64,000 nt of DNA from Nemertoderma westbladi (taxonomy: Eukaryota; Animalia; Xenacoelomorpha). Under the pieces are notes generated by a model. It searched no databases. It saw only the letters and a list, made by a program, of their open reading frames with translations, and was not told the DNA's origin. The position numbers and the translations under genes were made by a program. The stretch is taken from the NCBI GenBank assembly GCA_032718475.1, contig JAUCBJ010003676.1, positions 62,001 to 126,000 on the forward strand. The letters run 5' to 3'. Shown here piece after piece: positions 21,538 through 62,979 of the stretch (position 1 is its first letter; each line of letters opens with the position of its first letter).

Positions 21538-22411
21538 CCGCTCCAAGGGAAATCATACAATGTTTCCCTCCAATTGTAGAAGAGTATAAGGTGATGTATA
21601 CAAACAAAATAAATTTCTTCCAAATAATCTAGAAAACACAATAATTCTACTATTTACAAATATTGCCATAGATATTGCATAATGAATTTACATACAAATT
21701 AAAATTACAAAATATTATCTCTCTCAATGTTAACGATTATTACATACAAATTAAATTTACAAAAATACTGTTTCTCATTCGTTCTACATAATGATTACTA
21801 CATACAAAATTAAATTACAAAAATATTACTTCCTTTATTTATTTACAAATTGACTGTCTACCTATTGAAATGGAACATGGCTAGGACAATGTCCCCCATT
21901 TCCCATCTCAAATTAACGATCAACATTAACAAGATAAACTAAATATAAACGTATTTGAGGCTAAATTTTTAACTAAATTGCATTAAAGGCCGATAATCAA
22001 ATTAAATATAAAATACGTAATAATTTCTTTCATTTTCGGACTTTACTTAATTTCTTATAAAAAACGCAAATCATCTTGGTTTGATGATTGCTCAGGTAAG
22101 TGAAAGGAGTAAGCCAAACCCGCGGGTTTGTCTCCCCAATCACTTCCTTTGCCTCTTTCAATAAACTTTAGAGCAAATAAAGTCATATACACAAAATCAA
22201 ATATAATATAGGCTCAAAATCATATTTCCAACGGACTATAAAATAAAATTATTTCCTTTCAATATTTTTCGGCCTTCGAAAATAAAACTCTAAAATATGG
22301 ATACGACTAGTGTATATGAGTCCAGTCGAATGATTGATCAAAACCTACGATATGCATCAGAGCGACGATGATGTATATGTCTAGAGTTTGACGCTCCGTG
22401 ATATTATAGTC

Positions 22412-23512: not shown

Positions 23513-24240
23513 TAAGTGTTCCGTTACGCAAACCAGTTACACCGTGGGTAATCAGTTAGATGTCGCAGAAGGACAGACCTCCCGAACCCCCCCCCCCGCC
23601 TTCCAGCAGTTCAGGTTCGACTCTCTAGATCCCGTCTCTTCCTAACTAACTATCCTCTAACCTATTCCCATGCATAGCGCAAAACTTTGGAGATAAACTG
23701 GCCGTGACCAACTTACTTTTTGATGCCCAAACTACTCCCATTACTCGTACTAAACTACAGTAGTTAGAAAGGACTATAGCCACAATACTCGACTATACCA
23801 AACCCACAGGTTTGATAATCGAACATCACACATCCTGCAAACTACTGAGTGGGGTCCATGTACGCCTCTGGTGCTACTAACCTTTAGCACCTTAGTTGCA
23901 CTGTTGGCACCAATCTGTGGAAGTTGCTAAACTCAATTTACACTCCTATGTAATATAGCCGTCACCATGGTTTCTAAATGCTATTTTCCAGGCTTCACGA
24001 CTTTTCAAATTACTGTTTATCTATAGACGAATTCTAAAACGCGTCTATACACAGCGTCTGGAATTGTCTTGGGTTCACTTTTCTAATTTTAAAATTTTAA
24101 TTTTTCCAAAAATTTTGAAAATAAAATTTTGTTTTGATACCCACCAGACAAAACTCAACGCAAATCACCACAACCCCGCTCCTATGCATTTCCTTGTATT
24201 TGCATACGAGGAATGCATACGAAGTGAGTTGCGTCCAACA

Positions 24241-27200
24241 CTAACTCTGTTTTGAGGCAGGAGACAAATTATAATCTCCCGTCTCGATACGTGTCTCCTC
24301 TAATAACACGATATCTTGGACCGGTCGGTCCAAGGTGTGTAAACCATTAGTTTTACACTTTTTTGGGTGCGGACACTTGCACCTAATTTTCACAGTGACT
24401 GTGCGCACTATGTTTTGCACGTCTGGGTGTGTGTGCAAGATCACTCCCGTCTCCCAATACTTTCTCTTGACAATAGGTTCGGTTATCAGTACGTAATCTC
24501 CCCTTTGGAGGCCCCGAACCGTTTTGTACCACTTTGTTCTGGTGGATATGGTGGGAAGATAGTATTCCCGCCAATATTCCCAGAATGTGTACGCTACTAA
24601 TTGAGTCACTTTCCAGCTCTTACGACTATATAGGTCGGCACTAATGGGTTCTGATGCCGGCACAAGAAATGCTGGACTCTGCATTAGCAAATGATTCAGC
24701 GTTAATGCAACACCGTCTGGCAACATAGCTATCGGCCTCGAGTTTAGGGTATGCTCGATTTCAATGAAAGCTGTAACCAGTTCGTCGTCGGTAAGTTGTT
24801 TGTTTACAGGCAACGTCTTAGCAATGGCCTGCTTCACAGAGCGAACTAAACGCTCCCAACTTCCTCCTCTCCAAGGACTTTCTGGAGTATTGAATCTCCA
24901 TTCTACTCTTTGCGGCAAAAGTGCTGCAGAAATTTCCTTATTCTGTGCCGCTTTATGAGCCGCGTTCAACTCGCTATTCCCTCCGACAAAGTTTGTACCC
25001 TTATCGGAGTAGAACGCCTTTACTAGTCCTCTCCTGGCCATAAATCTCTTTAAGGCCAGGAGCAGAGATTTGGTCGACATGTCTGCCACACGCTCAATGT
25101 GTATGGCTCTACTAGCCATACATGTCAGTAGCAGACCCCATCGCTTGTGGGTCAGCCGTCCACTCTTTGCTTCAATCGGACCAAAACAGTCCACCCCTGT
25201 GTTCGTAAAGGGTGGGTCATATGCCTGCACTCTCGCTTCCAGGAGTTCAGCCATCTCCTGTTCCAATACTCTGGCGTTCACCCTCTTGCAAACCAGACAG
25301 GCGTCATACATAGTGCCGACTGCCCTGCTTGGCTGCAATAAAATGAATCGCTGTCTCGCTGCCGACAGACAGTGTAACTTTCCCGCGTGATGCAACCGCT
25401 TGTGTATATCCCATAGAATCGCTCTTTGCAATTCTATTGGGTGACTAGGGATTATCACTGGGAACCGAAACTGTGAGTTTATGTCGACAGTCTGGATTCT
25501 CGATCTATGACAAATTAAACCCTTATGGATTAATGGGCTCCATTTTCTAAGGGGTTTATAGAGAACTGGTCGTTGAGCCGATAATAGATGGAATTCTTTT
25601 GGGAAGGCACACATTTGATAATGCTTCAAATGCTTTAATTCCGCTTGATCAATCTCATCCTCTGTCAGAGGTTGTTTCAATTTCCGAATTCGCTCACTAT
25701 TGGTGCTCAATGGTTCTCTCAAATGTTTCGAATGTTTTAAACAAAGGTACGAAATGTATCGGCTTAACCACGCAGTTCTTTTACAAATTGTCAGCCAAGA
25801 GGCAGACGAATTTAGTAATTTGTCATAAATACTGCATGACTCTAATGCCAGCGACGGTTGTCCGCTAACTAATGGAAGTTTCGAATCCAAACCCGCAGGT
25901 TTGGAAACCAAAGGCTCCATTTTGTCAGTCATTTTCTGTCCGTCACTTATCAACTGTGACTGTCGTCTAGTCTGTAAGGGTGGTTTTACGTCATAACTTA
26001 CCCTTCCGGACCTAGTAGTCACGTAAGTCTGTTGGTCTGACAGGTCTCCGGGCCGCTCCAATGACTCTTCAGGCCGCTCCAATGACTCTTCAGGCCGCTC
26101 CAATGACTTAAGTTTGGCTTTAGACTTTGACTTAGAGACTTTCTCCACCTTGACTTCTGCATCTTCAGGCATCGGATTGGTCACTATCTTTAGTCGCTCT
26201 GGCCAATGTTCCTGTGTCCTCGTTAGAAAATCAGGTCCATGCAACCAAAACTCCTGAGACTCTTCCTGACAGAATTCCACCGGCATTGCACCTCTCGAAG
26301 TTATGTCGGCCGGGTTCAACACTCCCGGACAATGTCTCCATTGTTCCTTCGTCGAAAAGTCAACGATCTGAGCGCGTCTGTTGGCCATAAATGTCTTTAG
26401 TGCAATATTGTCGGCCGCAATGTATACTAACACCAAGGATGCGTCCGTCCAATAGAATAAGGTCAATGTCGTGTCTAACTCCTCTGTTATCTGCTTACTT
26501 ACCTCGACTGAAACTACAGCCGCCTGTAACTCTGCACGAGGGACAGTCATGTATTTGACCGGCATTGTCTTTGATCTAGAAGTCACAAAGGCCGTCTCAA
26601 ACTTGTCCTGACTTACCTCTCGGCGAAGGTAGGCTACCATACCAAAGCCGGTGTCACTTGCGTCACTGAACAGATGCAGTTCGAGATCAGCTGGAAATAC
26701 CAGCTGATTCGGAAAGTAGGAACGGGGTACGTCTATGTTTTTCAATAGATGTAACTCGGCTTCCCACTCCCTCCACTGCTTTGCATGTATAGGAGATATT
26801 GGTTCGTCCCACTCTAAGTCGGACAACCAAATTTTCCTCATGCACGCTCGTGCCTGTAATATAACCGGACTGATAAAATTCATCGGGTCAAATAGTCTAC
26901 TTAATGTCGATAAGCAAATCCTCTTTGTCAAAACTTTGTCTGGGCTACTGGGCTCAAATCTAACTCTTACCTGGAACTTATCTGAGTTCGGGTTCCAAGC
27001 GAGTCCCAGTACTCGCGCCATGGGGATTGGTTCTACCCCCAATTCTATGTCTCCGCTCCCGCGATCTTTTACCGGGAACGATTCTAATAGGGCCTCCGAA
27101 TTTGTAGTGAACTTGGTTAGAGGAAATCCCCCTGTAGCCAAGCACTCTTGCAGGCCGTGAGCCACTTCTATGGCTTGTTCCGCTGTGTCCTTGGACACCA

Positions 27201-30200
27201 ATCCGTCGTCCATGTAGAAGTTTCTCAAGATGGACTCGATTACTTCTACTGGATACTTACCAATCTGGGCTGTTGCCGTTTTCTTTAGAACAAACAGCGT
27301 GCCGTTCGGACTATCGCGGGCGCCAAATATCCTAACGTACATTTGGTATGTAACCACTGGGCCGGATAAGTCTTCATTCTCGTACCAGAGAAAGCGAAGG
27401 CTATCCTGGTCTGCCTTACAGGCTCTTACCTGGTGGAACATCGCCTCGATGTCACAAGTAAATGCGAATCGCCGCTGTCTAAAACGTAACAGTATTCCAA
27501 TCAAATAGTTGTTCAGGTTGGGTCCATCCATCAACTCTGAATTCAGGGACATACCTCTATAGACTGCTGCGCAGTCGTTGACTACTCGGACTTTGTCTGG
27601 TTTGTCAGGGTGAGTCACATAGTGGTGTGGAAGGTAATAAGTCTGGTCTGTCACTAAGTCAGGGTCCTCTACCTTCCCAGCAAATCCCTTGGCGAAATAG
27701 TTGTTGATCTGGGCGCAATACTTCTCCCTAATGTCTGGATTCTTCAACAACCGAGCCCTTACTCCGTTTAATCTTTTCAAGGCTAAGTTATAGTTGTTCT
27801 CCAACTTAGGTGGTTGTCGACGCCACAACATTCCAACTTCAAAATGTCCAGTCGGTAGTAGACGTATGGTATCTTCCATCATCTCCAGCGACCGTTTCTC
27901 ATCAGTAGACATGGCTAGGTCATATCCACCGGGTTCCATTGCGTCCCTATCCAGCCATTCGACGGTTCTGGCTCCTGTCTCGAGGTCCTGGCGTATCAAT
28001 TCCTTCTGTAATTCCTCCTCACTGTATTGGAAAATGTCTAGGTCTCGATATTTAGCCACTTGACCCTCCACTATGTCTGTATAAGTCAAAACGTTAGTCA
28101 AATAGGTAGCGTGGGCCGCTGAACCAGACCCACGGGTCTGATAACAGTAGTCCTCGGGTTCACTATCTGTCCGGTCGTTGTGAAGTGGTTCCGACAACCT
28201 AACATTATCGGGAATCAACTCCTCGTCCGACTCGCTAAAGTCGCTATAGTGGTCAATACAGGTTCTCCTAAACTCGTCTATGTCTGGTGGTTCTACTAAC
28301 GGTGGTTGAGTTATAGGCTGTAATTCGTCGTATCTGTCCATTGGCTTGTCACCACCTGTAAACTCATAAGACATGGGTACTCGTGTATACCAACCTAATA
28401 TAGTCCTATGGGCATGTGGTCCATTGACATGCGGCTCAGCTGGTCTCGTTTCCCATATTTGGTGTGCGATCAGCTGTTCTGCACCAATTAACATAGAAAC
28501 ATTCCTATAACCTACCTGGTGTCTGGGTATCCTGAGCTTGTCAAAATACTCCTGTGCTATGGGACTCATCGGCGGCACCTTACCTAACTGCCTGCCGAAT
28601 CCCTTCATAGCTAGACACTTAAATCCGTCCAATGGCAAAGCTTTCCGTTCTTGTCGAGTATGTTGGTCTCTCGGAAGTAGGGAATCTAGTTCTACCGAAA
28701 TTCTGTGTCCCTTGAGGTCTCCTACTCCATGCATAGACTTCAACTCTATTTGGATCTCCTCGGCGTCCTGGAAGCTAGAAACAGCTCTCGCCACTTCCTC
28801 GTCGATATAAGATAATGTGGACGCAGTGTCCAACATCACATATATCCGCTTTGATCCCTTATCGCCGGTAAGTTTCACCGGAATCACTCTAAATATTTCC
28901 GACGTTGCCGATGATAAATACGTCCGCGCGCTGGTCGATGAACTATCCGCGGTGAAACCTTGGCAGGTCACCTCTCTCGCGCTCGACTCGCCATCCTCGT
29001 CCGACGAACCTGGTTGATAACCATCGTCCTGGATGCCGGTGTACGTATTCCTCCTTATCGATACGGGTTCTTTGCTCCCCTTCCTTTGAGGATTTCGCTG
29101 TAAGTAACGGTCCGTTGGGGTGTGGAAATCCGCATGTAGCAACTTGTGATGTAGTCTGCCGCATTCCATGCATCCGTCCTTGCTGTTCGGGCACTGCCGC
29201 CGTACATGACCTGGCGCAAGACATGCCCAACAGGTGTCCAACGTCCGCACTTGAACTCTTCTCTGTTCCGAATTTAATTCTTTGAACCGTCTGCAACTAT
29301 CTAACTTATGATCGTCAGATCTTACCTCCTTTAGTAAACAGTATTGGCAACCTACAAATCCATCCGGCAACTCCTGTTGCTTTAACCTAGGTCTATCTAA
29401 CCGCTCACCTGACCATACTCGCGAGTCTGATCTAAAGGCTGGGGTACTCGAATTATATCTGTCTACTGAGTTATAAGTCACAGTGGTCCTGTTATCGTCA
29501 AAACTTACCATAGACTTACCGGTAACAGGCTTAGACTCTCTCATATTCTCTTCTGAGAAGTTTGATTTCATCTCTGCTACTGCTTCTGTGGCTATCATGT
29601 CATGAATATGCTGAAGTGTCAACACCTTACCTTGGCCCTCCAACTTATTCTCTAATTTGCGCCATTTCTGTCGATAACGCATGTTTAAACGTCTAATTAC
29701 GCTTTTCAAAACTTCGGCGTGATCACCATGATGAGGTAGATTCACCGTCCTCAAGATGTCCAATGCGTTCGAAATAGCGTTCGCTAAGTTCAACAGCTCT
29801 AACGGAGTTGTAATCCTTCCGCCCTTACCCAAGTCTTCTACTATCGACTGCGCCATCTTTGTTTTATTCCCGTAGATGTCGCTAAGCGTCTTCATCGCTA
29901 ACTCGAATGCCCTTTCATTGCCGACGAAGTTATCAGCAATGGCTCTAGGTTCTCGATGGAGCATCTGAAGCAAATAGTTGAACTTCTCGTTGGGAGTAAA
30001 GGTGCTGTTGGTTAGCTGCTCGTCGACATAGGTTTTAAAGGTCCTCCAATGCTTATGGTTGCCCATAAACTTCTGGGGTTGTTGCGTCGGCAGTCCTTGC
30101 CTAGCAGCAAACTTACCTATGTCCCTAAGGGTTGCGTCGTTCCGGGTTAACAAATGGTTTAGTTCCGCAGGGTTGTTAAGTCTGGTCCTTTCCCGGTGGT

Positions 30201-32538
30201 TCCAACTTACCTGCTCCGCGTCGGTCCTTCTTTCCTTATAGTTTCGGGACTTCTGACGTCTCATTTCTTCCTCTTCATCGCTTGACTCTGTGTCAGTCCT
30301 TAGCGCTCGCGATGGTTTGCGCGCCGAGGCCCTGATCCAAGCCTCCTCAATAAATTTCTCGGCCGAATTATCGAAGTTGGGATTATGAATATTCGGGACA
30401 GGCGTCCTTACCTGAGGTCTATGTGGTATAGTCTCCTCCGATATGCGTACTCGTTGACTAGGCTGGACTTTATCTAACTCAGGCCTGCTAGGATTAGAAT
30501 TACTTCTTACCTGGGCTGCTTCCTTTAACCGTAGGTTGCTAAGCATGTCCGTTATAGGTTGGATGTGCGGCGATATAGCTTGCGCTAAACTAGCACTTAA
30601 CTCATCCCTCGTAATAAATTCCTGGCTAGGGTTCTGTTGTATAGTCGGCTCTATCTGAGTAATCCGCTGTCTCTCATATGATCCCTCTTCCGGTTTAACC
30701 CGGAAGTTCTCCGTCGAACTGGGTCGGCGCTCCGTCCCCGTATTCCAAACCCGCGGGTTCGGTTCGCCCAATACTCGGCCCGTCGGAGTTTCTTCTCTAA
30801 ATTCTTCGTTGTCGCGTTCGGTGTATAGTGGTGCGGTGTTCTGATGCCGTGGATTCTGCGCGATAGGTGAAGCACTAATACCAACTGGCGTGCGATATGT
30901 AGAGAATGGTTTAGCGATCCGTGTACTCGTAATAGCTGGACCGGGTATAGGAATTCTGGTCGTCGTCGACTCGCGTATGGTCGGAGTTCTCGCTTCCTGT
31001 TCGGCCTTCTGCAGTGCGAACAGTTCTCGCAACTCGGTCCCTACACTCGCCCCACATTCTTCGATCATTCGCATCCCCTTCTCGGCGATTTCATTCGCCT
31101 TCCTAGTCCGTTCTTCGCTCTCTAAACTTAATCTCGCACTTTCCAACTGCGCCAGTTTACGTTCTTCTTCTTCCCTCGCTCGTCTCGCTGCGCTCTCTTC
31201 TTCCACCAGCGCCTTCTCTTCATACAACGCCCGTCGCTCCTTCTCGATCTCGAGTTCGCGTTCTTTGCGCTCGTGTTCGAGTTGAAGTTCGTATTCCTTT
31301 TGTTCGCGTTCGAGCTGGAGTTCGCGTTCCTTGCGTTCGCGTTCGAGCTTGAGTTCGCGTTCCTTGCATTCGCGTTCCGCTTGCTCGCGCTTACCTTTCT
31401 CTTCCAACTCTCGCAACTTTGCGTCTAACTTACGTGTGCGCTCCCGTTCCCGCTCGGCTTCCTTCCGTGCTTCCGATGCACGCAAAACTTCCGCCTGTTG
31501 TTCGTCCAGTTGGCGTCTTCTCTCCTCCGCCGAGTTGTGAGAAACAAGGGATCTAGCACATATAACCTTCCCTCGCGCGTGACTAACCTGGGAATCGCCA
31601 CTGTCTCTGCATGCGTCGTCGGGTGGAGTCAACGTCCTCTGTTGAATGTTCTCCGTCGTCGGTAGCACCTGACCTGGTACCACCACTCCATTCTGCATCA
31701 GCCAGCTAGTAACTTCCCTTTGATACCTGCGCTCTTCTTTATCTTGGATCTCTTCTCGCTCCACTAAGTCTCTCAACTCTGCGTCACTCACCTGAGTCGC
31801 CTGCGTTTGTGATGCCCATAGCAGCCAGTTCTCCGTCCTAACTCGTCGGAATCGCTCCGATAACTCGCGATGCTCCAACAGGGCTGCCAAAACCCTATCA
31901 TAAATCCTCGTCGCCACGTCGCTCGACTGAGACTCTACTGCCTTCTTCGCTAGGACTGCAAGCTCCTCCGTCTGCTTGAATAACGCTGAATTATATCCTC
32001 TTCTAATCTCTACTAACTCTACCCTCCCGATGTTCGCTGAGTCGGCTAACATTTTCCTTACCTTGTCCGCCGTCCGAGTTATATGTCCGGCGTGCGCGCG
32101 AAGTTTCTTCTTTATCGCAATGTCGAACTCTCTATCACTTACCTGACTTACACTCGGTGGACTTGAAGGGTTATTTCGGGAACTACGGGTACTCCTTACA
32201 GCCGTTGGGACCACGGCACTTACCATACCCACAGGTCTGGAAACCGGGCTCCGGGCTCTCGCTTCTGCTACACTACCCTCCCTATCACTCACCTCTGTCC
32301 GGGCTTCCGTACAGTCCTTCCTATCAGTAGCGGTAGGGGATCCTAATACTATTACCTGAGGTAGTTCTTCTTCCTCACTAGTCACTGTCTCGTCCTCCTG
32401 TTCACTTACGTCAGCGTCGCTCGCTGCGTCGTCATAGTCGGCATTGTCGTCAACAGTAATATTTACGCTATCGTCAGTCGGCGGTCCGGCCGCCGTCTCA
32501 TAGCTGTCCTCTACTGCCTCCTTGTCTGAGACACTCAT
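24241..32538 (-). CDS. BEL-2 intact gag-pol polyprotein (2765 aa)
   Basis: Coiled-coil Gag, knuckles (CWACLAPGHVRRQC), protease MLDTAST, RT FYMDD, RNase H FSDAS, integrase GVDCFGP/SDKGTNF/WERL; no stops. Confidence 0.96.
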   Translation of the reverse strand: MSVSDKEAVEDSYETAAGPPTDDSVNITVDDNADYDDAASDADVSEQEDETVTSEEEELPQVIVLGSPTATDRKDCTEARTEVSDREGSVAEARARSPVSRPVGMVSAVVPTAVRSTRSSRNNPSSPPSVSQVSDREFDIAIKKKLRAHAGHITRTADKVRKMLADSANIGRVELVEIRRGYNSALFKQTEELAVLAKKAVESQSSDVATRIYDRVLAALLEHRELSERFRRVRTENWLLWASQTQATQVSDAELRDLVEREEIQDKEERRYQREVTSWLMQNGVVVPGQVLPTTENIQQRTLTPPDDACRDSGDSQVSHARGKVICARSLVSHNSAEERRRQLDEQQAEVLRASEARKEAERERERTRKLDAKLRELEEKGKREQAERECKERELKLERERKERELQLEREQKEYELQLEHERKERELEIEKERRALYEEKALVEEESAARRAREEEERKLAQLESARLSLESEERTRKANEIAEKGMRMIEECGASVGTELRELFALQKAEQEARTPTIRESTTTRIPIPGPAITSTRIAKPFSTYRTPVGISASPIAQNPRHQNTAPLYTERDNEEFREETPTGRVLGEPNPRVWNTGTERRPSSTENFRVKPEEGSYERQRITQIEPTIQQNPSQEFITRDELSASLAQAISPHIQPITDMLSNLRLKEAAQVRSNSNPSRPELDKVQPSQRVRISEETIPHRPQVRTPVPNIHNPNFDNSAEKFIEEAWIRASARKPSRALRTDTESSDEEEEMRRQKSRNYKERRTDAEQVSWNHRERTRLNNPAELNHLLTRNDATLRDIGKFAARQGLPTQQPQKFMGNHKHWRTFKTYVDEQLTNSTFTPNEKFNYLLQMLHREPRAIADNFVGNERAFELAMKTLSDIYGNKTKMAQSIVEDLGKGGRITTPLELLNLANAISNALDILRTVNLPHHGDHAEVLKSVIRRLNMRYRQKWRKLENKLEGQGKVLTLQHIHDMIATEAVAEMKSNFSEENMRESKPVTGKSMVSFDDNRTTVTYNSVDRYNSSTPAFRSDSRVWSGERLDRPRLKQQELPDGFVGCQYCLLKEVRSDDHKLDSCRRFKELNSEQRRVQVRTLDTCWACLAPGHVRRQCPNSKDGCMECGRLHHKLLHADFHTPTDRYLQRNPQRKGSKEPVSIRRNTYTGIQDDGYQPGSSDEDGESSAREVTCQGFTADSSSTSARTYLSSATSEIFRVIPVKLTGDKGSKRIYVMLDTASTLSYIDEEVARAVSSFQDAEEIQIELKSMHGVGDLKGHRISVELDSLLPRDQHTRQERKALPLDGFKCLAMKGFGRQLGKVPPMSPIAQEYFDKLRIPRHQVGYRNVSMLIGAEQLIAHQIWETRPAEPHVNGPHAHRTILGWYTRVPMSYEFTGGDKPMDRYDELQPITQPPLVEPPDIDEFRRTCIDHYSDFSESDEELIPDNVRLSEPLHNDRTDSEPEDYCYQTRGSGSAAHATYLTNVLTYTDIVEGQVAKYRDLDIFQYSEEELQKELIRQDLETGARTVEWLDRDAMEPGGYDLAMSTDEKRSLEMMEDTIRLLPTGHFEVGMLWRRQPPKLENNYNLALKRLNGVRARLLKNPDIREKYCAQINNYFAKGFAGKVEDPDLVTDQTYYLPHHYVTHPDKPDKVRVVNDCAAVYRGMSLNSELMDGPNLNNYLIGILLRFRQRRFAFTCDIEAMFHQVRACKADQDSLRFLWYENEDLSGPVVTYQMYVRIFGARDSPNGTLFVLKKTATAQIGKYPVEVIESILRNFYMDDGLVSKDTAEQAIEVAHGLQECLATGGFPLTKFTTNSEALLESFPVKDRGSGDIELGVEPIPMARVLGLAWNPNSDKFQVRVRFEPSSPDKVLTKRICLSTLSRLFDPMNFISPVILQARACMRKIWLSDLEWDEPISPIHAKQWREWEAELHLLKNIDVPRSYFPNQLVFPADLELHLFSDASDTGFGMVAYLRREVSQDKFETAFVTSRSKTMPVKYMTVPRAELQAAVVSVEVSKQITEELDTTLTLFYWTDASLVLVYIAADNIALKTFMANRRAQIVDFSTKEQWRHCPGVLNPADITSRGAMPVEFCQEESQEFWLHGPDFLTRTQEHWPERLKIVTNPMPEDAEVKVEKVSKSKSKAKLKSLERPEESLERPEESLERPGDLSDQQTYVTTRSGRVSYDVKPPLQTRRQSQLISDGQKMTDKMEPLVSKPAGLDSKLPLVSGQPSLALESCSIYDKLLNSSASWLTICKRTAWLSRYISYLCLKHSKHLREPLSTNSERIRKLKQPLTEDEIDQAELKHLKHYQMCAFPKEFHLLSAQRPVLYKPLRKWSPLIHKGLICHRSRIQTVDINSQFRFPVIIPSHPIELQRAILWDIHKRLHHAGKLHCLSAARQRFILLQPSRAVGTMYDACLVCKRVNARVLEQEMAELLEARVQAYDPPFTNTGVDCFGPIEAKSGRLTHKRWGLLLTCMASRAIHIERVADMSTKSLLLALKRFMARRGLVKAFYSDKGTNFVGGNSELNAAHKAAQNKEISAALLPQRVEWRFNTPESPWRGGSWERLVRSVKQAIAKTLPVNKQLTDDELVTAFIEIEHTLNSRPIAMLPDGVALTLNHLLMQSPAFLVPASEPISADLYSRKSWKVTQLVAYTFWEYWREYYLPTISTRTKWYKTVRGLQRGDYVLITEPIVKRKYWETGVILHTHPDVQNIVRTVTVKIRCKCPHPKKCKTNGLHTLDRPVQDIVLLEETRIETGDYNLSPASKQS

Positions 32539-33618
32539 AGTCTAATAATGTTTGCCTTCCGGCAAAATATCTCGCAAAGTTCGAGATATAATTATAATTT
32601 AACCGAAAATACGGTCAAATTATTTGTCAAATAATCAGTTGGTCCAAAATGTCAAAATAAATTCGCAATGCAATATTGCGAATTTAATGGGGTATATAGT
32701 TATAGCAAATACTAGCACAATATTTAAACAAAATATTATTATATAGCTACTATAGCAATTAAATACCGGTATGACACAAAATAGCTTTGAATCTAATACA
32801 AAATATTCAAAATAAACTTGCCACCCGATTATTTCTAATTTTACATATATAGCTCTAATCAACGTAATTTTAATTTCAAATATTATATGTATCCACTAGC
32901 GCGTGGCTACATCTTCGGGTTGCGACTCTCTCTAACTCTCTCTCTAACTTGAGCGATTCAAAACCATGGCCGGCTAAACCTAAATATCCTAACTAATAAA
33001 TTGAGTTCAGCTTCGCAGTTAAACAACCGATAATTTTTTACTGCTTCCACAAACACAATGGTGCCAACAGAACAACTAACCTTGTTTGCTGTGAGATTCC
33101 ACGTCCGCGTCCAAAGATTCAGGCTTTTCGCTGATTGCAAACCGAACCCGCAGACCCACACGAACCCCAAACTCAGAAGTTCTGTCTTGCCATGTATCTC
33201 CAGATGGTATAAAATAACTAAGCGGTTACCTAACATACCGGTACAAAACTCTAGAATTTTACAAAATAATTTTGACCGAAACTGAATTCTCGCAAACCTA
33301 GCTAATAATTTTCAAAAAACTTACTAATTACAATTTGCCCTAAGGCCTAAGCAACTGTATTCGCAATTAGTAAAAACGCACTACCGTACATCCACTGTAT
33401 GCAGTACAGTAAGTAAAACAGTACACCAACCTAACAGCCTAATGCTACTGTGTGTGTGGTACGGCAAACAAATGTCCTTCTACCGTACGCAGTAACAGCA
33501 ATCAGCCTAATGTACTACTGTACTATCGTACGCAACCAGTGAATACAGTAATCTAAACTAGCAGCCTAAGAATACTCTATTGACCGCTGCAAGCAACAGC
33601 CAATAAAACATACCTTAC

Positions 33619-35846
33619 TGTTAAACAACCGCGACACCTATACTAACAGCAGAACTGTTGAACAGACAAATACCCGTATACCTCTCTGCCAACCTAATGA
33701 GCTCTCGCCTAACCAATAAGACACAAAGACTGCTCTACTGTTAAGTAAAGGGGATCAGGAGTGTGCTATTACTAAATTGTAAGGGTTGCTAAATACAAAA
33801 CCGCTACTTACCGTTGGATGGCGCTAATCTGCCGTCCGCTAATATATTTTACTAAATTTACACAACTCCTGCAAAATCGCTTGTTCCTTTCTCTACCGAT
33901 CGCTCGATAGAGAGCTAACTGTTCGAATCTATGAGCCACACGGGAATAACCAAAACAATAAACCCGAGTCGGCTCCCTAAGCTTACTTAAGACGAGTGCG
34001 AGGGGCTTTGCACTCAGAGTATATTCTTACGCCTAATTTTACCACTGAAATACGCTAATGCCTACGTCTTTTCTAATCGCGAATACTGGGGGTTCCCTAA
34101 CGGAATGTGTGAATGCGAGAATATTTAAAATAATCAAAATGGTACAGTACAATGTCTTTCGTAGGTGATACCGCTCTGGGTCTAAACTTGCCTGCAGCTG
34201 GCTTTAGGCCAGCAACTCACTAGTGTCTTGCGTACTGACTATTGCGATCTAGTTTATTACCCGCTAATGCAAATAACCGCTTAGCGTGAATAGTTTACAG
34301 TACTCTAATTATTACCTTAGCTACTCTCCGCTATGCTGCGTACTAATTCTTAATTTTTACTAATCAATTACAGTCACAAATATGTAACAGCGTACTAATT
34401 ACTAAGAGTTCCAGAATGCGTAATTCTAATTTATTACGCAACAGGTTTCGCTAGTAATAGCCTAAATTGCCGTATTACTTTGACCTAAGCAGTAGTTAAT
34501 TGTTGTAACTAAGAAATAGAAATCAATCAAAAGGGAATGGGGCGCCTACCTAAGCATTCGTAATCATAGGCACACTTCAGTAACACACCAATCAGCGTCA
34601 GCAATCACAGATCACAATAGTACAACTTGCAATTATACAATCTGCAATTATATAATTCGCAACATAATAATTCGCAATTGACTAATTCGCAATCTACTTA
34701 CTCGCAACTTACTTACTGTAAGGTATGCAGGCCCCTCCCGGGTACATCTAGGCTTCCTAAGTAACCCAATTCCTGCCCCCTAATACTAAATAGAGACAAA
34801 ACCTGGATCATCAGCCCCCTAATTACTGTACCAGCGAGCGGTCTCCAACCTACAGTCCAAATCGCCCGACTGCAACGTTGACCCCCGCCAGCGTTGCCCG
34901 CTTTTGAATCCTCCGCTCTCCCTAGTCGCTCAACCCCCCGATGTGCCCACCGCCCACTGGCACCTTAGCCCTTCATTATGCTAATAGCTACCGTAGCGGC
35001 GCATGCAAATCACAAAGTCTGACAGTCTCAGAAATCCCTTAGGATTATTGCGCAGAAAGGAATCACATAGAACCATTAATCAAAAGTAGAAATCATAGTT
35101 CAGTTGTAATTAGCAGTAATCGAAGGAATTAATTGAGAAACACAATCGAGAGTAATCGCACTAGCAAATCATTCCAAGAAATTAATCAAAATTAGCAAAT
35201 TGCAGAAAATACGCCAAAATATCCGTCAAAAATTGAATAGGGACAGCTCAGCAAGTACAAAGATGATATCAGATCCTTGTGAGGTGTCATGGGGCAGATT
35301 GGTAAGGCTCTACCGGCACACCGCCAATTTATAGGTGATCCGGGTGGGTGATGCAATAGGGTGACTCAATCGCTCTCCTATTGGCTCTCCAGTCCGTGCT
35401 AGCATTAGACCAACCTGGAAGCAGTTAGTCCAATAAGGAGGCCGGATTGTAGCCCTATTGCTCCCCAACTTCAAATTATTACCATATATGGTAATGGTTC
35501 ACGTCCTTGGCTGCTGAATGGCCAGGACAGCGTCCCTATATGCTAGCCCTATCGATGCTAATATCAGCAAGCACAAAATCCAGGGTCCGAATAAACTTGC
35601 TACCCTGGAACTATCTACATATATCCTAATACAAAATTACGTAGGTAGGGCTACATACTATACAAAATGGATGGATTCAAAATATATGGGCGTTTCGATT
35701 TCCCTATCTAAATATCATTGCGTTATTATGCCTTATCTAAAATATTATGCTGCACAACGGACTAATATTACATACAGTATAACGGACTAATATTGTGTAC
35801 AGTATAACGACTAATATATGTGGATACAGCGCCATATACCGTAACA
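33619..35846 (-). repeat. BEL-2 5' LTR (2228 bp)
   Basis: Direct repeat of 19311-21537; minus-strand TATAAA near 35330 with upstream CCAAT. Confidence 0.95.
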
Positions 35847-50730: not shown

Positions 50731-50739
50731 ATAGAATGT

Positions 50740-52444: not shown

Positions 52445-53274
52445 TGTTCGCGGTATTTCAACTTTTCATAATGCGAGTTGAATATTTTTTGTATTTATTT
52501 AAAATGATTATTCCGATATCACTACTGGGTGCGGGACCATGGGTTTTGGGCATATTCTATAAACTGGGGGCGATTTATGGGCGAACTTTGGGGCGACTTA
52601 CAGGGTACGGGACTAATTTCATGTTTATAAGGGCCAGGGGGGGATGGAAAATTCAAGCAGTATTCAGGTTAGCCTGATTACTATTACGCCCTGGCCAACT
52701 TCCTGCTGCCTGTAGAGGTGGATTTGGTAACGCGCCAGGCCTAAAGGACAAGGACTGCCCTTAGCGGTCCCTGGCCAACAGCAGTTATTACGAGCCTGAA
52801 AAGGACATCGGAACGCCAGCTGCTTGTGTCAGGGATTTGCGACGGGAAACGACAGCCCCCTTAGCCAAGCCGTACTGGTTCTCAATGACCGATCCCTTCG
52901 GGGTTCGCGAGGGGTGGGACGGACACGCGAATGGGTGGCCGACTTACTGAGGAAGGGTTTGACGAGGACTGCCCTTAGCGGTCTCTGGTCTACAGCAGTT
53001 ATTACGAGCCTGAAAAGGACATCGGAACGCCGGCTGCTTGTACCAGGGATTTGCGACGGGAACCGACGACAGACCCCTTAGCCAAGCCGTACTGGTTCTC
53101 GATGATTGTTCCCTTCGGGGTTCGTGAGGGGTGGGACAGACACGCGACGGGGTCGAAAGACAAAGGACTGGACTGGACACGCGACAGGGTCGACCGACAC
53201 CGACACTACGGCATCAAGACTAGGACCGAGGGAAAATCTGGGGAACATTAGTTAGGCTAAAATCTGAGCGAACA
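52445..53274 (+). repeat. BEL-3 5' LTR (830 bp) with internal ~214-bp tandem duplication
   Basis: TGTTCGC...GCGAACA ends; LINE frame stops at 52444; duplicated units start at 52751 and 52965. Confidence 0.75.
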
Positions 53275-54025: not shown

Positions 54026-57000
54026 ATGATGACAAATAACGTTTCCGATACCGAGGAGATGGATCACCACACAGACTCGGAAACCGACGAGGTACCAAAC
54101 ATCAAAAACATGGCTCGTCGACTAGGTGCTCTCAAAGGCGGAGTCACTCGAGCGTACCAACGTATAGAGAAACAACTCAAGGGAGTCGAAACCCCCCTCA
54201 ACGAGATACAAGCTCAGCTTCAGAGTATCCGAAGTATCTTACAAAGACATGAGAGAATGATACAGGCGTACCAAGAACTCATCCCCGCCACCGACCAGGT
54301 AAATTATCCCAAATTGGAAGAACACGTTGCACGCCTAGACGAATTCTGCAAACAACACCGGAGGACCCTTAGCCTCGTAAGAGGCTACGAAGAACAGTAC
54401 TACAAGAGAGCTGAAAGAACAGACGCAGAATCAGTGCGAACCTCCAGCACCAGGACAGCAGTACATCGAAAGAGAACGGGGTCCTCTAGAAATCAGCACT
54501 CCAGCGCTAGGAGCGCGGTATCCGGTTCAGCACACAGCTCTCAAGGGGGTCAACCACTCCGAGACCAGCTATGAGAACGGAAGGCATTAGCCCTCAAAGC
54601 TCGGATGGAAGATGAGTATATTCAACTGCAAACCGAGCAAGATGTATTAGCCGCCGAAATGCAAAAACGAGAGGCCGAACAAGAGGCCGAACGGCAGGCC
54701 GCACAACGTGAACAGGAGGCTGAACAATGTGAACAGGAGGCTGAACTACGTAGACAGGAGGCTGAACAACATAGACGAGAGGCCGAACGGCAGGCCGAAC
54801 AACGTAGACGGGAGGCCGCACAACGTGGACGAGAGGCCTAACGAGAGATCGAACAACGTAAATGGGAAGCAGAAATGCGTAAACAACACGCCGAGGCCCA
54901 AGCGATTCTCATCCACAAAAAGAATGCGGATATTGCGAAACTCGCGGAATATGAAGCCGCACTTGTAGAACGAGATATCCAACTATACGAGGACTGGGAA
55001 AGGGAAATAGATCAGGAATATGAACCAATCCCGGTACCGGAGTTAGAGAAGTCATTTACACCAACAGCGGCAAAACTTCCGAAACCCGAGATCCCGCCTA
55101 CCATACAGTCTACGTTATCGGCACAAGCACCGGTGTTCAATCCCCCACCGATTACGCTGAAAAATGAGGAACCGTGTTTCCCATCCAACCCCACGACAAC
55201 GAGTGTACCCAAGTACGAGCCTGAAAGGGACTCGGAACGGGACGCCACTCCCCGATCCAACAACCCATTTATATCCACACCACAAACCCGTAGTCGCGTC
55301 ATCATTAAAACTCCACCTATCATTGATCCATCGAGTATGGGAGTGAGTGCCAATAACTATAACCCTCCGAGTCACTCCAGTTCAGACGACGTCGGTATTA
55401 TCCGGGCGTTGGAAAACCGCCTTGCCATGCCTAAAATGGAGATCCGCACCTTCGAAGGAGATCCCGTCGATTACCTCAGATTCAAGAAACGGTTCTTTGC
55501 GCAGATTGGATCAACGGACATAGCCGACGCACAGAAATTGGTATATTTATCGCAATACCTGGGTGACAAACCACGCAGAATTATTGCATGTTTTGAGGGA
55601 GGTTCTCACGAGGCATACTATGACGCATGGAAAACTCTAGATAAAAGATACGGAAATACCGGAACTATAATTAATAAAACTCTAGAGAGACTGATACAGG
55701 ACGCGGGATCACTAGGGGACCCACAGAACATCCAGGAATTCTCCGACTCTATGAAGGATGCCTACTATACTCTGAAACCCTTAAATAAGGAGGACCAGGT
55801 GAACAACATTCTAAACCTCCGACAGATCGCCCGGAAGTTCCCCGGATGGCTACAAAGTAAGTGGGCTTATAAATGCGTAGATCTCCGGCGCAGACATCCA
55901 GATCGAGATCCTAGCTTCCTTGAAATGTCGGCATTCCTGGACGATATCTCCGAAGCCATGAATGACTCGATGTTTTCAAAACAGAGTCTCGCCAAGTTGG
56001 ACGGAATAGAGAGCAACTCCAGGAGTAAGATACCCCCTCCGAAACCGAGATTCCGCCCCCCACCGGTGAGTACGATGGCCATCACCATGGCCAAGGATTC
56101 CGACGACGAAGACTACGAGGAACCGACATCCGCCGAGGAATGGGCGTGTTACGTTGCGAATTGGGCACCCGAGAGGGAAGGCATCACAAACTCCCTCCTC
56201 TGTCTCTTCTGTGGAGAGAAACATAAAGTGGAATTCTGCAGGAAGTTTCAGTTCGCCGAACTCGTCCCACGCTTCGAGGCGATAATGAAACACCGAGGAT
56301 GCTTCCGGTGTCTTGGAACAGGTCACTATGTTCGGGATTGTGACCAAAGATCGTGCAGTGCAGTCTGTAACGACCTACGTCATCACACGCTCCTCCACAT
56401 CCCCGCAAACTTCGATTTCACTACCCTCCCCTTTCGGATCGAAGCCAAGCGAAGAGGAGAAACGAACCACGTTTTCAAAGGAACCCGGACAACCCAACGG
56501 AGAGAAACCAACCCGTTTAAAATCTCCACCGATACACCACAAGTAACAAATATTTCAGCCACGATTAATCTTATAAATCGCCGCTACATGGTCTTCGCAA
56601 AGGTAATCCCAGTAAGGATTCAAGGAGTCGGCAAATCCCTGACGACGCTCGCGTTCCTTGATAACGGGTCTGACGGAACCATCATCTGACGGGACCGGGA
56701 TTTCCTCAAGCAACTCGGCCTAGAATATGAACCTTGTAAACGGCCCATACAAACCATCACCGATAACAGAGAGGTAGAGTCTGGGGAGGTGCAACTCCAG
56801 ATGGAAGGAGTAATGAAGGGCTACGAAACGGTTAAGTTAACCATCAAGAACGCCTTGGTACACACAGACCTCCGAGTGCGGTTCCGACAATCAGCCGAGT
56901 ACGCCCCCCTCATACAATTGGACCGAGACGATGTAGATCTGAGGTGTCCGCAGTTGGACGTAAACCGCATCACCCTACTGATCGGACTTGATACACCGGA

Positions 57001-60000
57001 ACTACACATCCCCACCGGAGATATCGCCCGATCTATAAAACAGGATGACGGATTTTATGCTGAACGAACAATAATGGGATGAACACTCTGCGGCATTAAG
57101 GAAGAAACTACTGACACCTATACCTACCTTCCCAAATGTCAGATTAAAGAGAATGCAACCTCCGTGGGTTATTGCTCAGCTACGGACCTTGACGAGGATT
57201 TGTTTCTGGAGACCGAGAAAACCCAACAAGAGATGAAGAAATATTTTAATCTAGAGACCCAGGAGTTCGCTGAAAAGGACGAAAACCCGTCCGAAGAGGA
57301 TCAATATTGTATGGACGTTCTCGACCAGGCCACGTTCAAAGACGGACACTGGTGTTCACCTATGTTATGGAAGGACCCAAACAAACCAATGGCAAACAAC
57401 GCCAGCATGGCACTTAGGCGACTTAAGGGGATTCTGCGCCGGCTGAATGACCAACCCGAGATAAAGGAGAAATATAATACCGTAATCCAAGGATATCTCG
57501 ACGATGGATTAGCAGAAATGGTACCATGGAATGAACTGCAAGGTGGTAAAAGAACATATTATCTCCCAACCCACTATGTGGTAGAAGCCCGGAAGGGTGG
57601 GAAAATCCGAGTGGTAAATGATGCCGCCGCTATGTACCAGGGCGAATCCCTAAACAGTCAGCTTTACACGGGACCCAACATATATAGTACACTCATCGGC
57701 GTATTGATCAGGTTCAGGGAAAACCAGGTAGCATTCACCTGCGACATCAAGGCCATGTTTCATCAAGTTCGTATGCTACCAAGAGACTCAGACTGTCTAC
57801 GTATCCTATGGACGGATAAAACACTAACTCAACAGGAGATTAGTCAACTTACGATAAAGGACGTAGACATAATGCGTATGGTCGTCAGGATCTTCGGCGC
57901 TAAGGACTCGCCGGTAGCATGCAGTGACATGCTGAAGAGGACGGCAACTATGTGCGAAAACGAGTTCCCTCCAACTGTCATAGAAACCATCCGACGATGC
58001 TTTTACGTGGACAATGGATGCGCTGGCGCAGATAATGTGGACGAGGCATATCGGCTAGCAATGGGGATGGTAGAATGTCTAAAGAAAGGAGGTTTTCCAC
58101 CCGTGAAGTTCAGATCCCATGACAAAACACTTATGGAAAAGTTTCCGGAGGACATCCGGCTGGAAAATAACAAAATGTATTCGGAGGATGTGGAACACCG
58201 TGTACTTGGGATTGAATGGGACATAGAATCAGACGAATTCATTTTCAAATATAAACCCCTACCCAAGCCTATGACAAAAAGGGGATGTTTGTCGATAAAA
58301 AGCACCATCTTCGACCCACTAAATTTCATATCTCCAGTAACCTTGGCCGGAATGAACCTGATTAAGGAAATGTGGATAGAAGGACTGGGATGGGACGAAG
58401 AACTCCCCCCACACCTCAGCGTCAAATGGAGAAAATGGACGGAGCAGCCGGAACACCTACATCTTATGCGGATACCTCGACCGTTCTTCCTCGATAAACT
58501 ACCCACCGATATCTTCCAGCTCCATACCTTCTCGGATGCTTCGAATACCGGAATTGGCGTAGTCACCTTCTTACGAAGACTCAGCAATGATGGAAACGGC
58601 GATACGAGCTTCTTATTTTCTAAAGCCAAGACAGTATCCGGGGAATTCGTAGCAACGATTCCAAGACTCGAGCTACAGGCTGCAGTTTGGGCAGTAAGAC
58701 AGAATCGCATGGTCATGCGGAACCTACGAATCCCCATCGAGTCTCAACACTTCTGGGTCGATTCGAGTATAGTTCTCTATTATCTCCACTCTCCATCACG
58801 GCGTCACACTACGTTTGTTGCGAACCGAGCCACGGAGATTAAACAGTGTACCGGCCGAGAACAGTGGCACCACGTGAACGGGAAAGAAAATCCAGCGGAC
58901 TTATCAAGCCGAGGCGCCACCCCAAAACAACTCGGTAAAAGCAAACTCTGGCTTACAGGCCCTGAATTCCTACAGCAGCCACAATTAACATGGAGTACCC
59001 GATTCGACCCCGTACTCGATAGCGGAAAATACTCCGAGGACAATAAAGAGATCCGTAAAGTCCATAGAAGCAACGCAGTGGAAATTTATAGTTGTCCGAC
59101 TGAGCCTGCAAAGGACTCGGGCAGGCACTATAACGTCGCGACGATCATTCAACCAGCGGCGTCTTTACATCTGTTGATCGAGCGAACCTCATCAATGAGA
59201 AGGCTCATCCACCACATTATAACCCTTCGCAACTTCCTACGGTGGAAAGACAACAAGCCGATAGTTCAACGGAGTATACAAGAACTCATTATCGCGGAGA
59301 AGTGTATCGTTGGATATGTCCAGAGAGAAAGTTTCCCCGATGAGTGGGAACAACTCAGTGCGTGCAAGACCTTGAAACCGGATAGCCCAGTCTACCAACT
59401 GAGACCAATGATGGGAGAGGACGGACTGATCCGACTGAATACCCGGATGGCAAACGCCCCGGTCGAATATGAGGTTAAATACCCGGCGCTTCTGCCCGGA
59501 ACTTCAACACTAGCCAAGCTATTAATTCAACAATGTCACGAGGAGAACCATCACGCAGGACAAAACTGGATTATAGCTAATATAAGACAAAGATATTGGA
59601 TCACACACATCCAGCCACTGATCCGGAAAGTGTTGAAACGTTGCTTTATCTGCAGAAGATATCTAGCGCCACCACTCACACAAAAGATGGCCGACTTACC
59701 AGCCACCCGTCTACAGCCCGATTCCCCACCATTCTACGTCACCGGAGTGGACTGTTTCGGTCCGTTTACGGTCATCGAACGACGATCCAACATCAAATGC
59801 TGGGTGGCCATATTTACGTTCCTTAGGTCTAGGGCAATCTACCTAGACATTGTGGTGAACCTTACGCAACACGCATTCATCAACGCTCTGCGTCGGTTCG
59901 TGGCAAGCAATGGGACATGTCGTCACATGTATTCCGATAACGGCACAAACTTTGTGGGAGGAGAAAGAGAACTTAGAGAGGCGATCGAGGGATGGTTTAC

Positions 60001-60709
60001 CGATAACACCGCATCCCAAGTCTGGAAGGAACACCAGATACAGTGGCACTTCCAGACCCCCTTAGCACCCCATACGAGCGGGGTATGGGAGAAACTGATC
60101 GACCTAGTGAAACGATCCATGCGCGTCGCTCTAGGAGACACCCGGGTAACCCATGACACCCTCCGCACAACATTCTGCGAGATCACGGCTACCCTGAACA
60201 ACCGACCCATTGTCCCTATCCGCGACGACCCCACAGACCTGGAGCCCCTTACTCCTAATCACCTACTGGGGAGACCTAAAACTCATGTTCTCCCAGAGAC
60301 AATGTTTCCGGATCCCAACGATATTGCGAGACATACAAACTGGAAGAATGCCCAAGCGTTGGCAGCGCATTGGTGGAGAATCTGGGCCCAGGAGTACCTC
60401 ATAACCCTCCGGACCAGGAGGAAGTGGAACAACACCTACAGGAATATCGAAGTTGGCGCCATGGTACTAGTAAAAGAAGACCTTAAAGACCGCGTCCACT
60501 GGCCTGTGGTGCGAGTTGTGACAATACATCCGAGTAAAGACGGACTTGCGAGGACTGTGACGATACGAACGGCAAAGGGCCACTACCAACGCCCTATCCA
60601 GAGGCTGTGCCTTCTTGAAGGCAATGACAGCGGTGACTCTACGAGAGGTGATAAGTTCCCTACTCAGGATCCTGCTGCGGACATTGGTGACAATTACAAA
60701 TGCGTTTAA
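54026..60709 (+). pseudogene. BEL-3 gag-pol, one frame with four premature stops and a YVDN RT motif
   Basis: ORF pieces starting 54026, 54605, 54875, 56789 and 57164 share a frame; knuckle CFRCLGTGHYVRDC, FLDNGSDGT, FSDAS, GVDCFGP, SDNGTNF. Confidence 0.92.
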
Positions 60710-61405: not shown

Positions 61406-61968
61406 CAACAAAGATTTCCCAAAGAAGATGATTGAATGTAGTTGGAAATGATGAAAAGAATCAGACAACTCTACTATAAACCTGAATGATGACGCGTATG
61501 ATGATGAAAATGTAATGATGCGCACCCTGGTGCTGCGCTTATAACAAATGATGATAGCCGGGGGGCTATAACCCCAATGATAATGTGTAAATAAATGAAA
61601 TGTGGAAATGAAATGTGAAATAAATGGTGGAAATAAATGTGTTGAAATATGTTGAAATAAATGAAATGTGATGAAATAATAATGAGAAATGAAAAAAAAA
61701 AGACAAAAAAAAGGTATAAAAAGTCTAAAGAAAAGAATTGGAAAAAAGAAAGGACATAAAAAGTCATAAAACTGGTTGGATATTAATGTATAGCTATAGT
61801 AACTGTAAATGCTGAATGTATTAGCAATAAGATGATAGATGCCTATATAGCAATGTTATTAATAAACTGAACTAAAAATAAAACTGAATTATTCTGCAAT
61901 CACTATAGTTTCAGACTTTCTGGACTTATAATTAACTGATCTAATTTGTAACGGATATAATCGTAAAT

Positions 61969-62950
61969 ATGGACCCAAATCGCCAAATTATCGGCGAATT
62001 ACGTAACACGATAGATCTACTGGAATATTCGCAACCTGGATCCCCTGACTTTGATACAAATTGGAGCACCCTGCTAAATGAGAACGTGCGAGTCGTTAAA
62101 TTCACCGGGCGAGAGGGACCGGATTCCAAGAATCTACGAGCCCTCCGGTTAGCCGATGCTAGTACGAGACTGAAAAGAACTCGGAACGCAAAGGCAACCG
62201 GAGGGGACGATTCGTCGTTTTGGGAAACGTTCCGGCAGAGCGTCTACAGATCCCGATGTTTGATCTACGACAACGAGGGAAACGCGACGCCCACCTCGAA
62301 AGCGATTACGTTGGCGAGATGTCAAAGTTTCGTCGACGACAAGAGTACGTACCTCGCCCACTGGGGAAACCTGTCAGAGTGTACGGCGACGCTTCGAGAG
62401 GAACGTATATCGACCATCCAAAATCGCGACGACTACCAAGAAAAATACGGGCGAAAGAATACGGTCGATCCTTAATCGTCGTCCTCGGAACCCTGGACGG
62501 TTTGGTATTGGTGTGTCGAATATTTCCGACACCCAGACAGGAAGTGCAGGCAGCCGGAGCGATCTGGTTGCTACCTCCGGAAATCCAAAAGATCCTCTTC
62601 GACGTCATTAAAATCGGGTCGGATATAAAGGCGGACATCCGGAACGACTACGCGAACACTCCTTCAGGAAGAAACCGACGAGACGACCTCAACGCCCTTA
62701 GCCATTGCGTCGACACTCAAACGCTACTAGCCTGGTTACGATTCGCCGAGTTCATGCGAGGATTCCTTTCATCCATGAGCCGTGGGCTCGAAAAATAGAC
62801 ATAAACGAAAAAACGCCATAGGCGCAATGATAAAAACACCAGCTGGCACTCATGAAAAATGGATAGAGATGGCCTAGTAATGCTATTCTATAGGAATGGC
62901 CACCTAACAAGGAAATGCTTTCTGTGCCAAGTATTATCCTCACTCTACAA
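61969..62950 (+). pseudogene. BEL-3 accessory ORF remnant: DEDD 3'-5' exonuclease homologous to the BEL-1 accessory ORF
   Basis: LIYDNEG vs MFYDNEG; LPPEIQKILFDVIKIGSDIKAD vs LPKAVRDVVLDKSIVKIGSGVRDD; CVDTQTLLAW vs YVDTRPLLLW; frameshift near 62470. Confidence 0.8.
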
Positions 62951-62979
62951 CTCAGACAGTGAGCAAACATAAGCTGTGG

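Follow-up and report, generated by a model that had tools for sequence, protein, structure and literature searches.

Open reading frames behind pol are usually taken for env genes, and the rotifer LTR elements Juno and Vesta, in which a different gene lies behind pol, belong to the Ty3/gypsy group. In these elements of bdelloid rotifers, as well as in Athena/Terminon, a DEDDy exonuclease is encoded by ORF3, and the catalytic DEDD has become DEED (Rodriguez et al., 2017, PMC5408684). The same work proposed that DEDDy ORFs have passed between unrelated retroelements (PMC5408684), the Terminon case is repeated elsewhere (PMC6431247), and the DnaQ-like domain has been described as well known among the accessory domains of LTR elements (PMC6338049). 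For BEL/Pao elements, no exonuclease accessory ORF was found in the open literature searched, and the word "exonuclease" has 0 occurrences in PMC3118150, PMC554778, PMC9094657 and bioRxiv 10.64898/2026.03.22.711591. In the nematode Cer elements (Cer7 and relatives), which belong to BEL/Pao, additional genes follow pol as well, the known one being a phlebovirus-like env. Malik et al. in 2000 are said, though this is uncertain, to have reported an accessory domain resembling an exonuclease in one Cer element; if true, the novelty of a BEL exonuclease is lower.

The window, by which we mean the whole 64-kb stretch of DNA analysed here, holds three BEL/Pao elements, BEL-1 (+), BEL-2 (-) and BEL-3 (+), and element types of this kind suggest an animal host. 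Among the runs listed as containing this DNA there was no RNA run; one further run, from a second organism, with a small share and of presumed type, is not counted as evidence. The best explanation of the sequence behind BEL-3 pol, which we hold with fair confidence, is a broken accessory gene of a multi-copy BEL/Pao family, encoding a predicted WRN/EXD2-type exonuclease that was likely captured once by a retroelement ancestor. The features of BEL-1 and BEL-3 are as follows:

4902..13755, + strand: BEL-1 gag-pol, in three ORF pieces (4902-10751, 10669-12981 and 12982-13755)
14490 (ATG)..17831, + strand: BEL-1 ORF2, intact, 1113 aa, with an N-terminal domain, a predicted DEDDy-like exonuclease and C-terminal CCHC knuckles
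52445..53274, + strand: inferred 5' LTR of BEL-3, 830 bp, with inverted ends TGTTCGC..GCGAACA and an internal 200-bp tandem duplication
54026..60709, + strand: BEL-3 gag-pol, a 2228-codon frame interrupted by four stops, at 54572, 54839, 56687 and 57080
61909..61968, + strand: leader of BEL-3 ORF2, with the short words GTAACG and TGTAAC common to the ORF2 leaders of BEL-1 and BEL-2
61969..62475, + strand: 5' piece of the BEL-3 exonuclease gene, ATG to stop, with the ExoI-like YDNEG at 62266
62466..62798 (open frame 62163-62798), + strand: 3' piece of the same gene in another frame, with strands, LPPEI, KIGSDIKAD and VDT..LL.W

The domain order of BEL-3 gag-pol, DUF1759 (E = 8.7e-15), CCHC, Peptidase_A17 (E = 9.9e-38), integrase H2C2 (Integrase_H2C2, E = 6.3e-9) and DUF5641 (E = 5.7e-28), fits BEL, and these gag and pol domains place the element in BEL/Pao (Belpaoviridae). 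Its RT motif reads YVDN (58004-58015, +), that of BEL-1 YVDD and that of BEL-2 YMDD. The YVDN motif has been described for Cer7-Cer12 and Atlas (PMC554778, PMC9094657), and BEL-3 resembles these nematode elements in this respect, but in one motif only. A preliminary description of this DNA had called the gag-pol of BEL-3 very different from that of BEL-1, and identity between the two is indeed 31-39% in pol and 20% in gag. The 830-bp LTR that it had reported is likewise there, as an LTR-like repeat that interrupts a LINE RT frame. It is present in a single copy, with no second one up to the window end, so that the exonuclease gene is not seen between two LTRs. Rearranged LINE fragments surround the insertion (50000-52444). 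Between pol and ORF2 lies a spacer of 1259 nt that contains tandem repeats and low-complexity DNA. In one DNA run, contig word depth over the LTR (52445-53274) and the post-pol spacer (60500-61700) is far above that over gag-pol, which possibly reflects a non-autonomous derivative, contig depth being no copy number.

The motifs that had been reported behind BEL-3 pol, YDNEG (62266), LPPEI (62571), IKIGS (62607) and VDT..LL.W (62709), are found in that order on the + strand, distributed over two frames, and their counterparts in BEL-1 lie at 15897, ~16100 (LP..), 16146 and 16230. The order is thus that of BEL-1, as stated before, but the position agrees only roughly: the domain starts ~100 aa past the ATG in BEL-3 vs ~470 aa into the 1113-aa ORF2 of BEL-1, and the loop insertions differ. 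The frame of the BEL-3 gene breaks at ~62440-62475. Against BEL-1 ORF2 the 3' piece scores 81, which is reached by 0/1000 shuffles (maximum 59), and the 5' piece alone is weak (score 48; 20/1000 shuffles against the whole ORF and 7/1000 against the exonuclease region). A frameshift-aware alignment to BEL-1, which the preliminary description had proposed as a check, scores 85 when the gene is read through with X at the break (0/1000 shuffles). A tblastn search inside the window matched BEL-1 ORF2 to BEL-3 with 31% identity over 58 aa (E = 6.5e-4). On these alignments, the BEL-3 pieces are almost certainly homologous to BEL-1 ORF2.

The BEL-3 copy is frameshifted and apparently truncated, as follows from its two frames, from the end of similarity and from the lack of matches to the other parts of BEL-1 ORF2. 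Similarity to BEL-1 gives out close to 62760 and the frame runs to a stop at 62798, with lower GC and CpG past ~62800; the end at 62950 that had been given for the feature is therefore too far downstream. Throughout 60710-64000 there was no match above 100 shuffles to the N-terminal 420 aa, to aa 590-720 or to the C-terminal part of BEL-1 ORF2, and no N-terminal domain, third catalytic motif or zinc knuckles (residues 868-881 and 914-927, C-terminal, in BEL-1 ORF2) were detected in the BEL-3 copy. At the end of the gene, contigs have loose ends on both sides of 62767-62835, a segment that includes the stop of the 3' piece, which suggests that it is shared with another repeat.

Both proteins very probably belong to the DEDDy 3'-5' exonuclease family, and both look like its WRN/EXD2 type. 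They follow WRN/EXD2-like domains (PF01612; human EXD2, PDB 6k1d) in the order ExoI D-x-E, two strands, LP..helix, ExoII K-x-G-x4-D, VD strand and candidate ExoIII, but fall below every curated threshold, contain long loop insertions and deviate at ExoIII, where Asp appears to have become Glu in BEL-1 and nothing is detected in the BEL-3 copy. ExoI D-x-E, the motif of the first strand, is present in both copies as YDNEG; in the MAFFT alignment with 15 bacterial enzymes its Asp falls on their invariant Asp, but the ExoI Glu was misplaced. ExoII K-x-G-x4-D is present as KIGSGVRDD in BEL-1 and KIGSDIKAD in BEL-3. The candidate catalytic residues of BEL-1 are D471, E473 and D561, together with Y666/E670, chosen by eye within Y666-L-A-I-E670 as the counterpart of ExoIII Y-x3-D with Glu for Asp; MAFFT put the bacterial YAATD earlier, without those residues. 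ExoIII was not found in the BEL-3 copy, where the frame stops at 62798 and aa 590-720 of BEL-1 have no match better than shuffles in the three frames of 60710-64000. With the first three acidic residues conserved, the domain may still be catalytic.

Searches of Pfam, NCBIfam, PHROGs and PDB sequences gave no exonuclease match for the BEL-1 or BEL-3 pieces, and the curated profile PF01612 was not reached: with E values of up to 10 allowed, 0 exonuclease families matched these pieces. With the ESM Atlas, aa 380-720 of BEL-1 matched a WRN-like exonuclease set (24/30 matches, score 0.91), a result to be read against the 4-10% of shuffled proteins that reach 0.9 and the 170 or more shared features usual for family members, here 160; the 112-aa BEL-3 piece had no usable match. 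A custom profile built from 16 bacterial WRN/EXD2-like proteins and searched against 425 window frames had BEL-1 ORF2 as its top match (E = 0.028), followed in second place by the BEL-3 frame, both at ExoII; the score of the BEL-3 frame is weak, at 2.8 bits vs 2.3 for the third frame. By the same profile the BEL-1 region beats 1000/1000 shuffles, and 2/1000 reach the score of the BEL-3 reading with X (2.6). A broader profile of 31 sequences put BEL-1 first (E = 0.35) and the BEL-3 piece fifth in the list. Comparison by hhalign yielded E values of 8.7e-5 and 7.6e-4 against the WRN-like set vs 0.14 and 0.12 against 15 PolA/RNase D domains. A single-sequence fold had a pLDDT of 35 and no structural match at E 0.001. 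When 15 WRN-like sequences guided the fold, pLDDT was 48, the best match was EXD2 (E = 4.5e-4, TM 0.27-0.36) and the motifs fell on the expected strands, all of which is circular by construction. A shared nuclease would suggest an old, mobile-element-specific nuclease family overlooked by standard profiles.

Compared with the described systems, the BEL genes come closest to rotifer ORF3 in being a separate ORF behind pol, in the DEDDy type, in the apparent replacement of one catalytic Asp by Glu and in a patchy distribution over families. The differences are several: the rotifer change is DEED, whereas BEL-1 appears to be D-E-D-E (ExoIII Y..E); rotifer ORF3 has been called RNase D-like, whereas the BEL domains are nearer to WRN/EXD2-like than to PolA/RNase D enzymes; BEL-1 has in addition a 470-aa N-terminal part and CCHC knuckles; and rotifer ORF3 resides in Juno/Vesta and in Penelope-like elements instead of BEL/Pao. 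If BEL families with only 31-39% identity in pol share an exonuclease, this would carry the rotifer case to another LTR superfamily. BEL-1 ORF2 differs from the extra gene of Cer elements in having no strong hydrophobic segment (the top 19-residue hydropathy, 1.48, falls within the exonuclease region) and no env match in a Pfam search, so that the env hallmarks of signal peptide, transmembrane anchor and viral fusogen homology are missing; the weak hydropathy and the terminal CCHC knuckles make it not env-like. Its N-terminal domain, conserved between BEL-1 (14490-15400, +) and BEL-2 (23482-23070, -), contains C-x2-C and RC-x-H-like residues and had zero family matches in a Pfam search.

Two cellular comparisons bear on RNA. 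Trypanosoma brucei RNase D trims guide RNA tails. Like BEL-1 ORF2, it combines a DEDD exonuclease with CCHC knuckles (PDB 7c42/7c45, "CCHC-type domain-containing protein"), but it is a cellular enzyme with no detected sequence similarity to BEL-1 ORF2, so that the likeness is one of architecture only. The Drosophila protein Egalitarian has an inactive DEDD fold and binds transposon RNA stem-loops. EXD1 and Maelstrom are also inactive DEDD folds that bind RNA (PMC5408684). All three offer a model for an exonuclease fold that recognises RNA stem-loops; they differ from the BEL proteins in being host proteins, and the first three acidic residues are kept in BEL.

Private hairpins are dispersed over both exonuclease-bearing elements:

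6673, 6766, 9300, 9378, 9456, 14108, 15261, 16807, 18259 and 18408, + strand: copies of the BEL-1 hairpin, in coding sequence (two reading phases) and in non-coding sequence
52792, 53006, 55217, 59102 and ~62166 (62163..62188), + strand: five copies of a BEL-3-specific hairpin, two in the LTR and one each in gag, pol and the exonuclease gene

The BEL-1 hairpin has 22 nt and a four-base loop; its 10 copies are spread over gag, pol, spacer, ORF2 and 3' region, with 0 elsewhere in the window, and the stem-loop is a candidate for an RNA packaging or binding signal. The BEL-3 hairpin differs from it, and all 5 copies lie inside BEL-3, in a pattern fitted after looking. In BEL-2 no 12-mer is dispersed three times in the part scanned; the pairing of hairpin and exonuclease rests on three elements, two with hairpins (BEL-1 and BEL-3) and one with none.

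DNA-run contigs from three studies cover BEL-3 with 15890, 6578 and 231 records and many differing letters, which indicates a multi-copy family, and variant contigs from all three studies cover the exonuclease bins. One contig of 1104 nt with 39 other letters, from a different copy or allele, spans 61550-62662 and so connects spacer and exonuclease gene. Some contigs differ in length inside the gene, and the breaks of the window copy are thus not common to all copies. Membership of the gene in the BEL-3 element is highly probable in our view.

The element without a detectable exonuclease is the following:

19311..35846, - strand: BEL-2, with 2228-bp LTRs that are 99.5% identical and a 5-bp target duplication
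24241-32541, - strand: BEL-2 gag-pol, intact, 2766 aa in an unbroken frame
23070..23482, - strand: decayed ORF2 remnant between the BEL-2 LTRs, homologous to the N-terminal domain of BEL-1 ORF2

BEL-2 is young, given its LTR identity, its target duplication and its unbroken gag-pol, and it is 59% identical to BEL-1 across the RT region. The remnant matches the N-terminus of BEL-1 ORF2 with 60% identity over 43 aa, and in a separate alignment with a score of 144 (shuffle maximum 56), and its place between LTRs supports ORF2 as an element component. No exonuclease signal was found downstream of the remnant in the three frames checked. As a young element without a detectable exonuclease, BEL-2 implies that the gene is either dispensable or supplied in trans; the gene looks optional for transposition. 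The LTRs of BEL-2 (19311-21537 and 33619-35846) are very long at 2228 bp. A short tandem duplication flanks the element (19190-19301 and 35847-35960), directly behind a PPT-like site of BEL-1 at ~18892, and BEL-2 may be nested in the 3' LTR of BEL-1; a matching BEL-1 5' LTR was not found in the window.

A single capture by a retroelement ancestor is probable on the sequence comparisons. Three motifs, YD.EG, KIGS and D[LIV]..D[FY]A, are present in both copies and in 0/31 bacterial domains. Between BEL-1 and BEL-3 the ExoII block reaches 81, while none of 16 bacterial proteins scores above 62, and the BEL-3 piece scores 81 against BEL-1 and at most 53 against the 31 bacterial domains. For the whole BEL-1 domain the margin is modest and refers to a bacterial set only, with 75 against the best bacterial enzyme, near the 81-85 against BEL-3. 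In five hand-picked motif blocks, 28/91 positions are identical between BEL-1 and BEL-3, a value above that of gag (20%) and below that of pol (31-39%), in line with what co-inheritance would predict. The leaders of the three ORF2s also share words: the 60 nt before the start codons have six 5-mers (5/2000 shuffles) and two 6-mers (33/2000) in common, the length of this segment, like the leader and hairpin patterns, having been picked after looking. Pairwise DNA alignments of the three leaders were not significant (89-238/1000 shuffles), and only the three-way word count was. GTAACG stands 21-45 nt before each ORF2 start (14455 +, 61948 + and 23527 -), with an AT-rich stretch; it resembles a MYB-type site and may mark an internal promoter, and the BEL-3 segment 61909-61968 is a candidate for either a leader or such a promoter.

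Relatives outside the window were sought in several ways. Word-index protein searches returned none among 1349 candidates for BEL-1 aa 380-720, 488 for a 300-aa domain and 4388 for a three-sequence alignment. Scans of viral and metagenome contigs (one with RT) gave no relative, and phages and plasmids gave only ABC-transporter matches at E 8-9. One metagenome locus, L165, was rejected as a chance match, its frames being unrelated bacterial-type genes.

Whether the gene also descended strictly vertically with pol is, on our estimate, evenly balanced. The preliminary description had seen in it an old, vertically kept feature rather than a one-off capture; homology stands (81, 0/1000) and a common origin is supported, but "kept" overstates the case for a broken BEL-3 copy and a BEL-2 without detectable exonuclease. 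Among the competing histories, the one that survives best, and which we consider unlikely, is one old capture followed by sideways transfer of a cassette between co-resident families by template switching, such that the RT tree is not tracked. All three families reside in one genome, and the gene looks modular, as BEL-3 ORF2 has neither the N-terminal domain nor the knuckles and BEL-2 has an N-terminal part without exonuclease. There is also precedent, the rotifer DEDDy ORF3 having been gained at least 2 times in LTR lineages and being shared with Penelope-like elements (PMC5408684). However, the block divergence of 28/91 is on the scale of pol and gag, which makes any swap about as old as the split, and each of the two ORF2s contains the hairpin of its own element, suggesting long residence.

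Two independent captures from one host subfamily (EXD2/WRN-like), with the shared motifs merely those of the family, are very unlikely. This reading could draw on the bacterial WRN-like score of 75, near 81-85 between the elements, on the differing loop lengths and flanking domains, and on a comparison set that is wholly bacterial; it is opposed by the three shared motifs missing from 31/31 bacterial domains, by the drop of the BEL-3 piece from 81 to 53 or less against those domains, and by the words common to the non-coding leaders. That the BEL-3 piece stands outside the element, as a repeat of its own or a piece of host sequence downstream of pol, is scarcely credible. The window without a BEL-3 3' LTR, the 1259-nt spacer with its repeats and the lack of a pol-to-gene bridging contig among those listed would allow it, but strand and order match BEL-1, the hairpin is confined to LTR, gag, pol and exonuclease gene, and the 1104-nt contig of a different copy or allele links spacer and gene.

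With regard to function, that ORF2 stands apart and has a leader of its own suggests that its protein is produced independently of Gag-Pol, by analogy with env-position ORFs perhaps from a sub-genomic RNA. Splicing of ORF2 is not claimed: acceptors 42 and 54 nt before the ATGs of BEL-1 and BEL-3 are no better than other AG sites, and BEL-2 ORF2 has no comparably close acceptor among its best sites. The mechanism that we tentatively favour is that the ORF2 protein acts on the RNA of its own element. The exonuclease fold, together with the zinc knuckles in BEL-1, would bind to the hairpins dispersed over the genomic RNA, and the bound protein might trim or guard RNA 3' ends in particle assembly. 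This preference comes from the private dispersed hairpins in both exonuclease-bearing elements and none in BEL-2 (three elements only), and the zinc knuckles point to RNA. Degradation of host silencing small RNAs is conceivable but somewhat unlikely, and a passenger without benefit would be improbable. Trimming of primer or cDNA ends seems more doubtful still, weakened by BEL-2 having transposed recently without the gene. The most speculative proposal, to which we give little credence, would be that an old BEL/Pao lineage encodes an exonuclease-fold RNA reader plus its own target, a private hairpin in gag, pol, ORF2 and untranslated regions and in several frames, with the ORF2 protein packaging, protecting or transporting the RNA, in the manner of Egalitarian and the stem-loops of Drosophila transposons; families that drop the exonuclease, such as BEL-2, would then lose the hairpins too. 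BEL-1 offers both an intact protein and ten copies of its hairpin, which makes the role of such nucleases, the question posed by the rotifer work, accessible to an in-vitro test.

Across the window, searches returned no Rfam families and no tRNA genes. Behind the LTR, BEL-2 (33609-33618, -) and BEL-3 (53275-53290, +) both lack a tRNA primer site of the TGG type and continue with GT, splice-donor-like. In BEL-2, the 10 nt that directly follow the LTR show complementarity to this LTR itself, at position 1120; in BEL-3, tested one base off, the post-LTR sequence has no self-LTR complementarity of at least 7 nt. A 42-bp tandem array of ~53 or more units lies inside a 738-aa frame (46000-49373, -), the frame ahead of it has a Thr-rich tail that is mucin-like by eye, and a His/Gln-coding repeat is flanked by inverted arms at 44300-45600. 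Two frames at 37651-39452 (-), one with a DUF7869 match (E = 7.8e-8), have the look of a DNA-transposon-type gene. Finally, a MITE-like repeat of 400-500 bp is present in several copies (1579-1981, 2998-3566 and 39880-40372).
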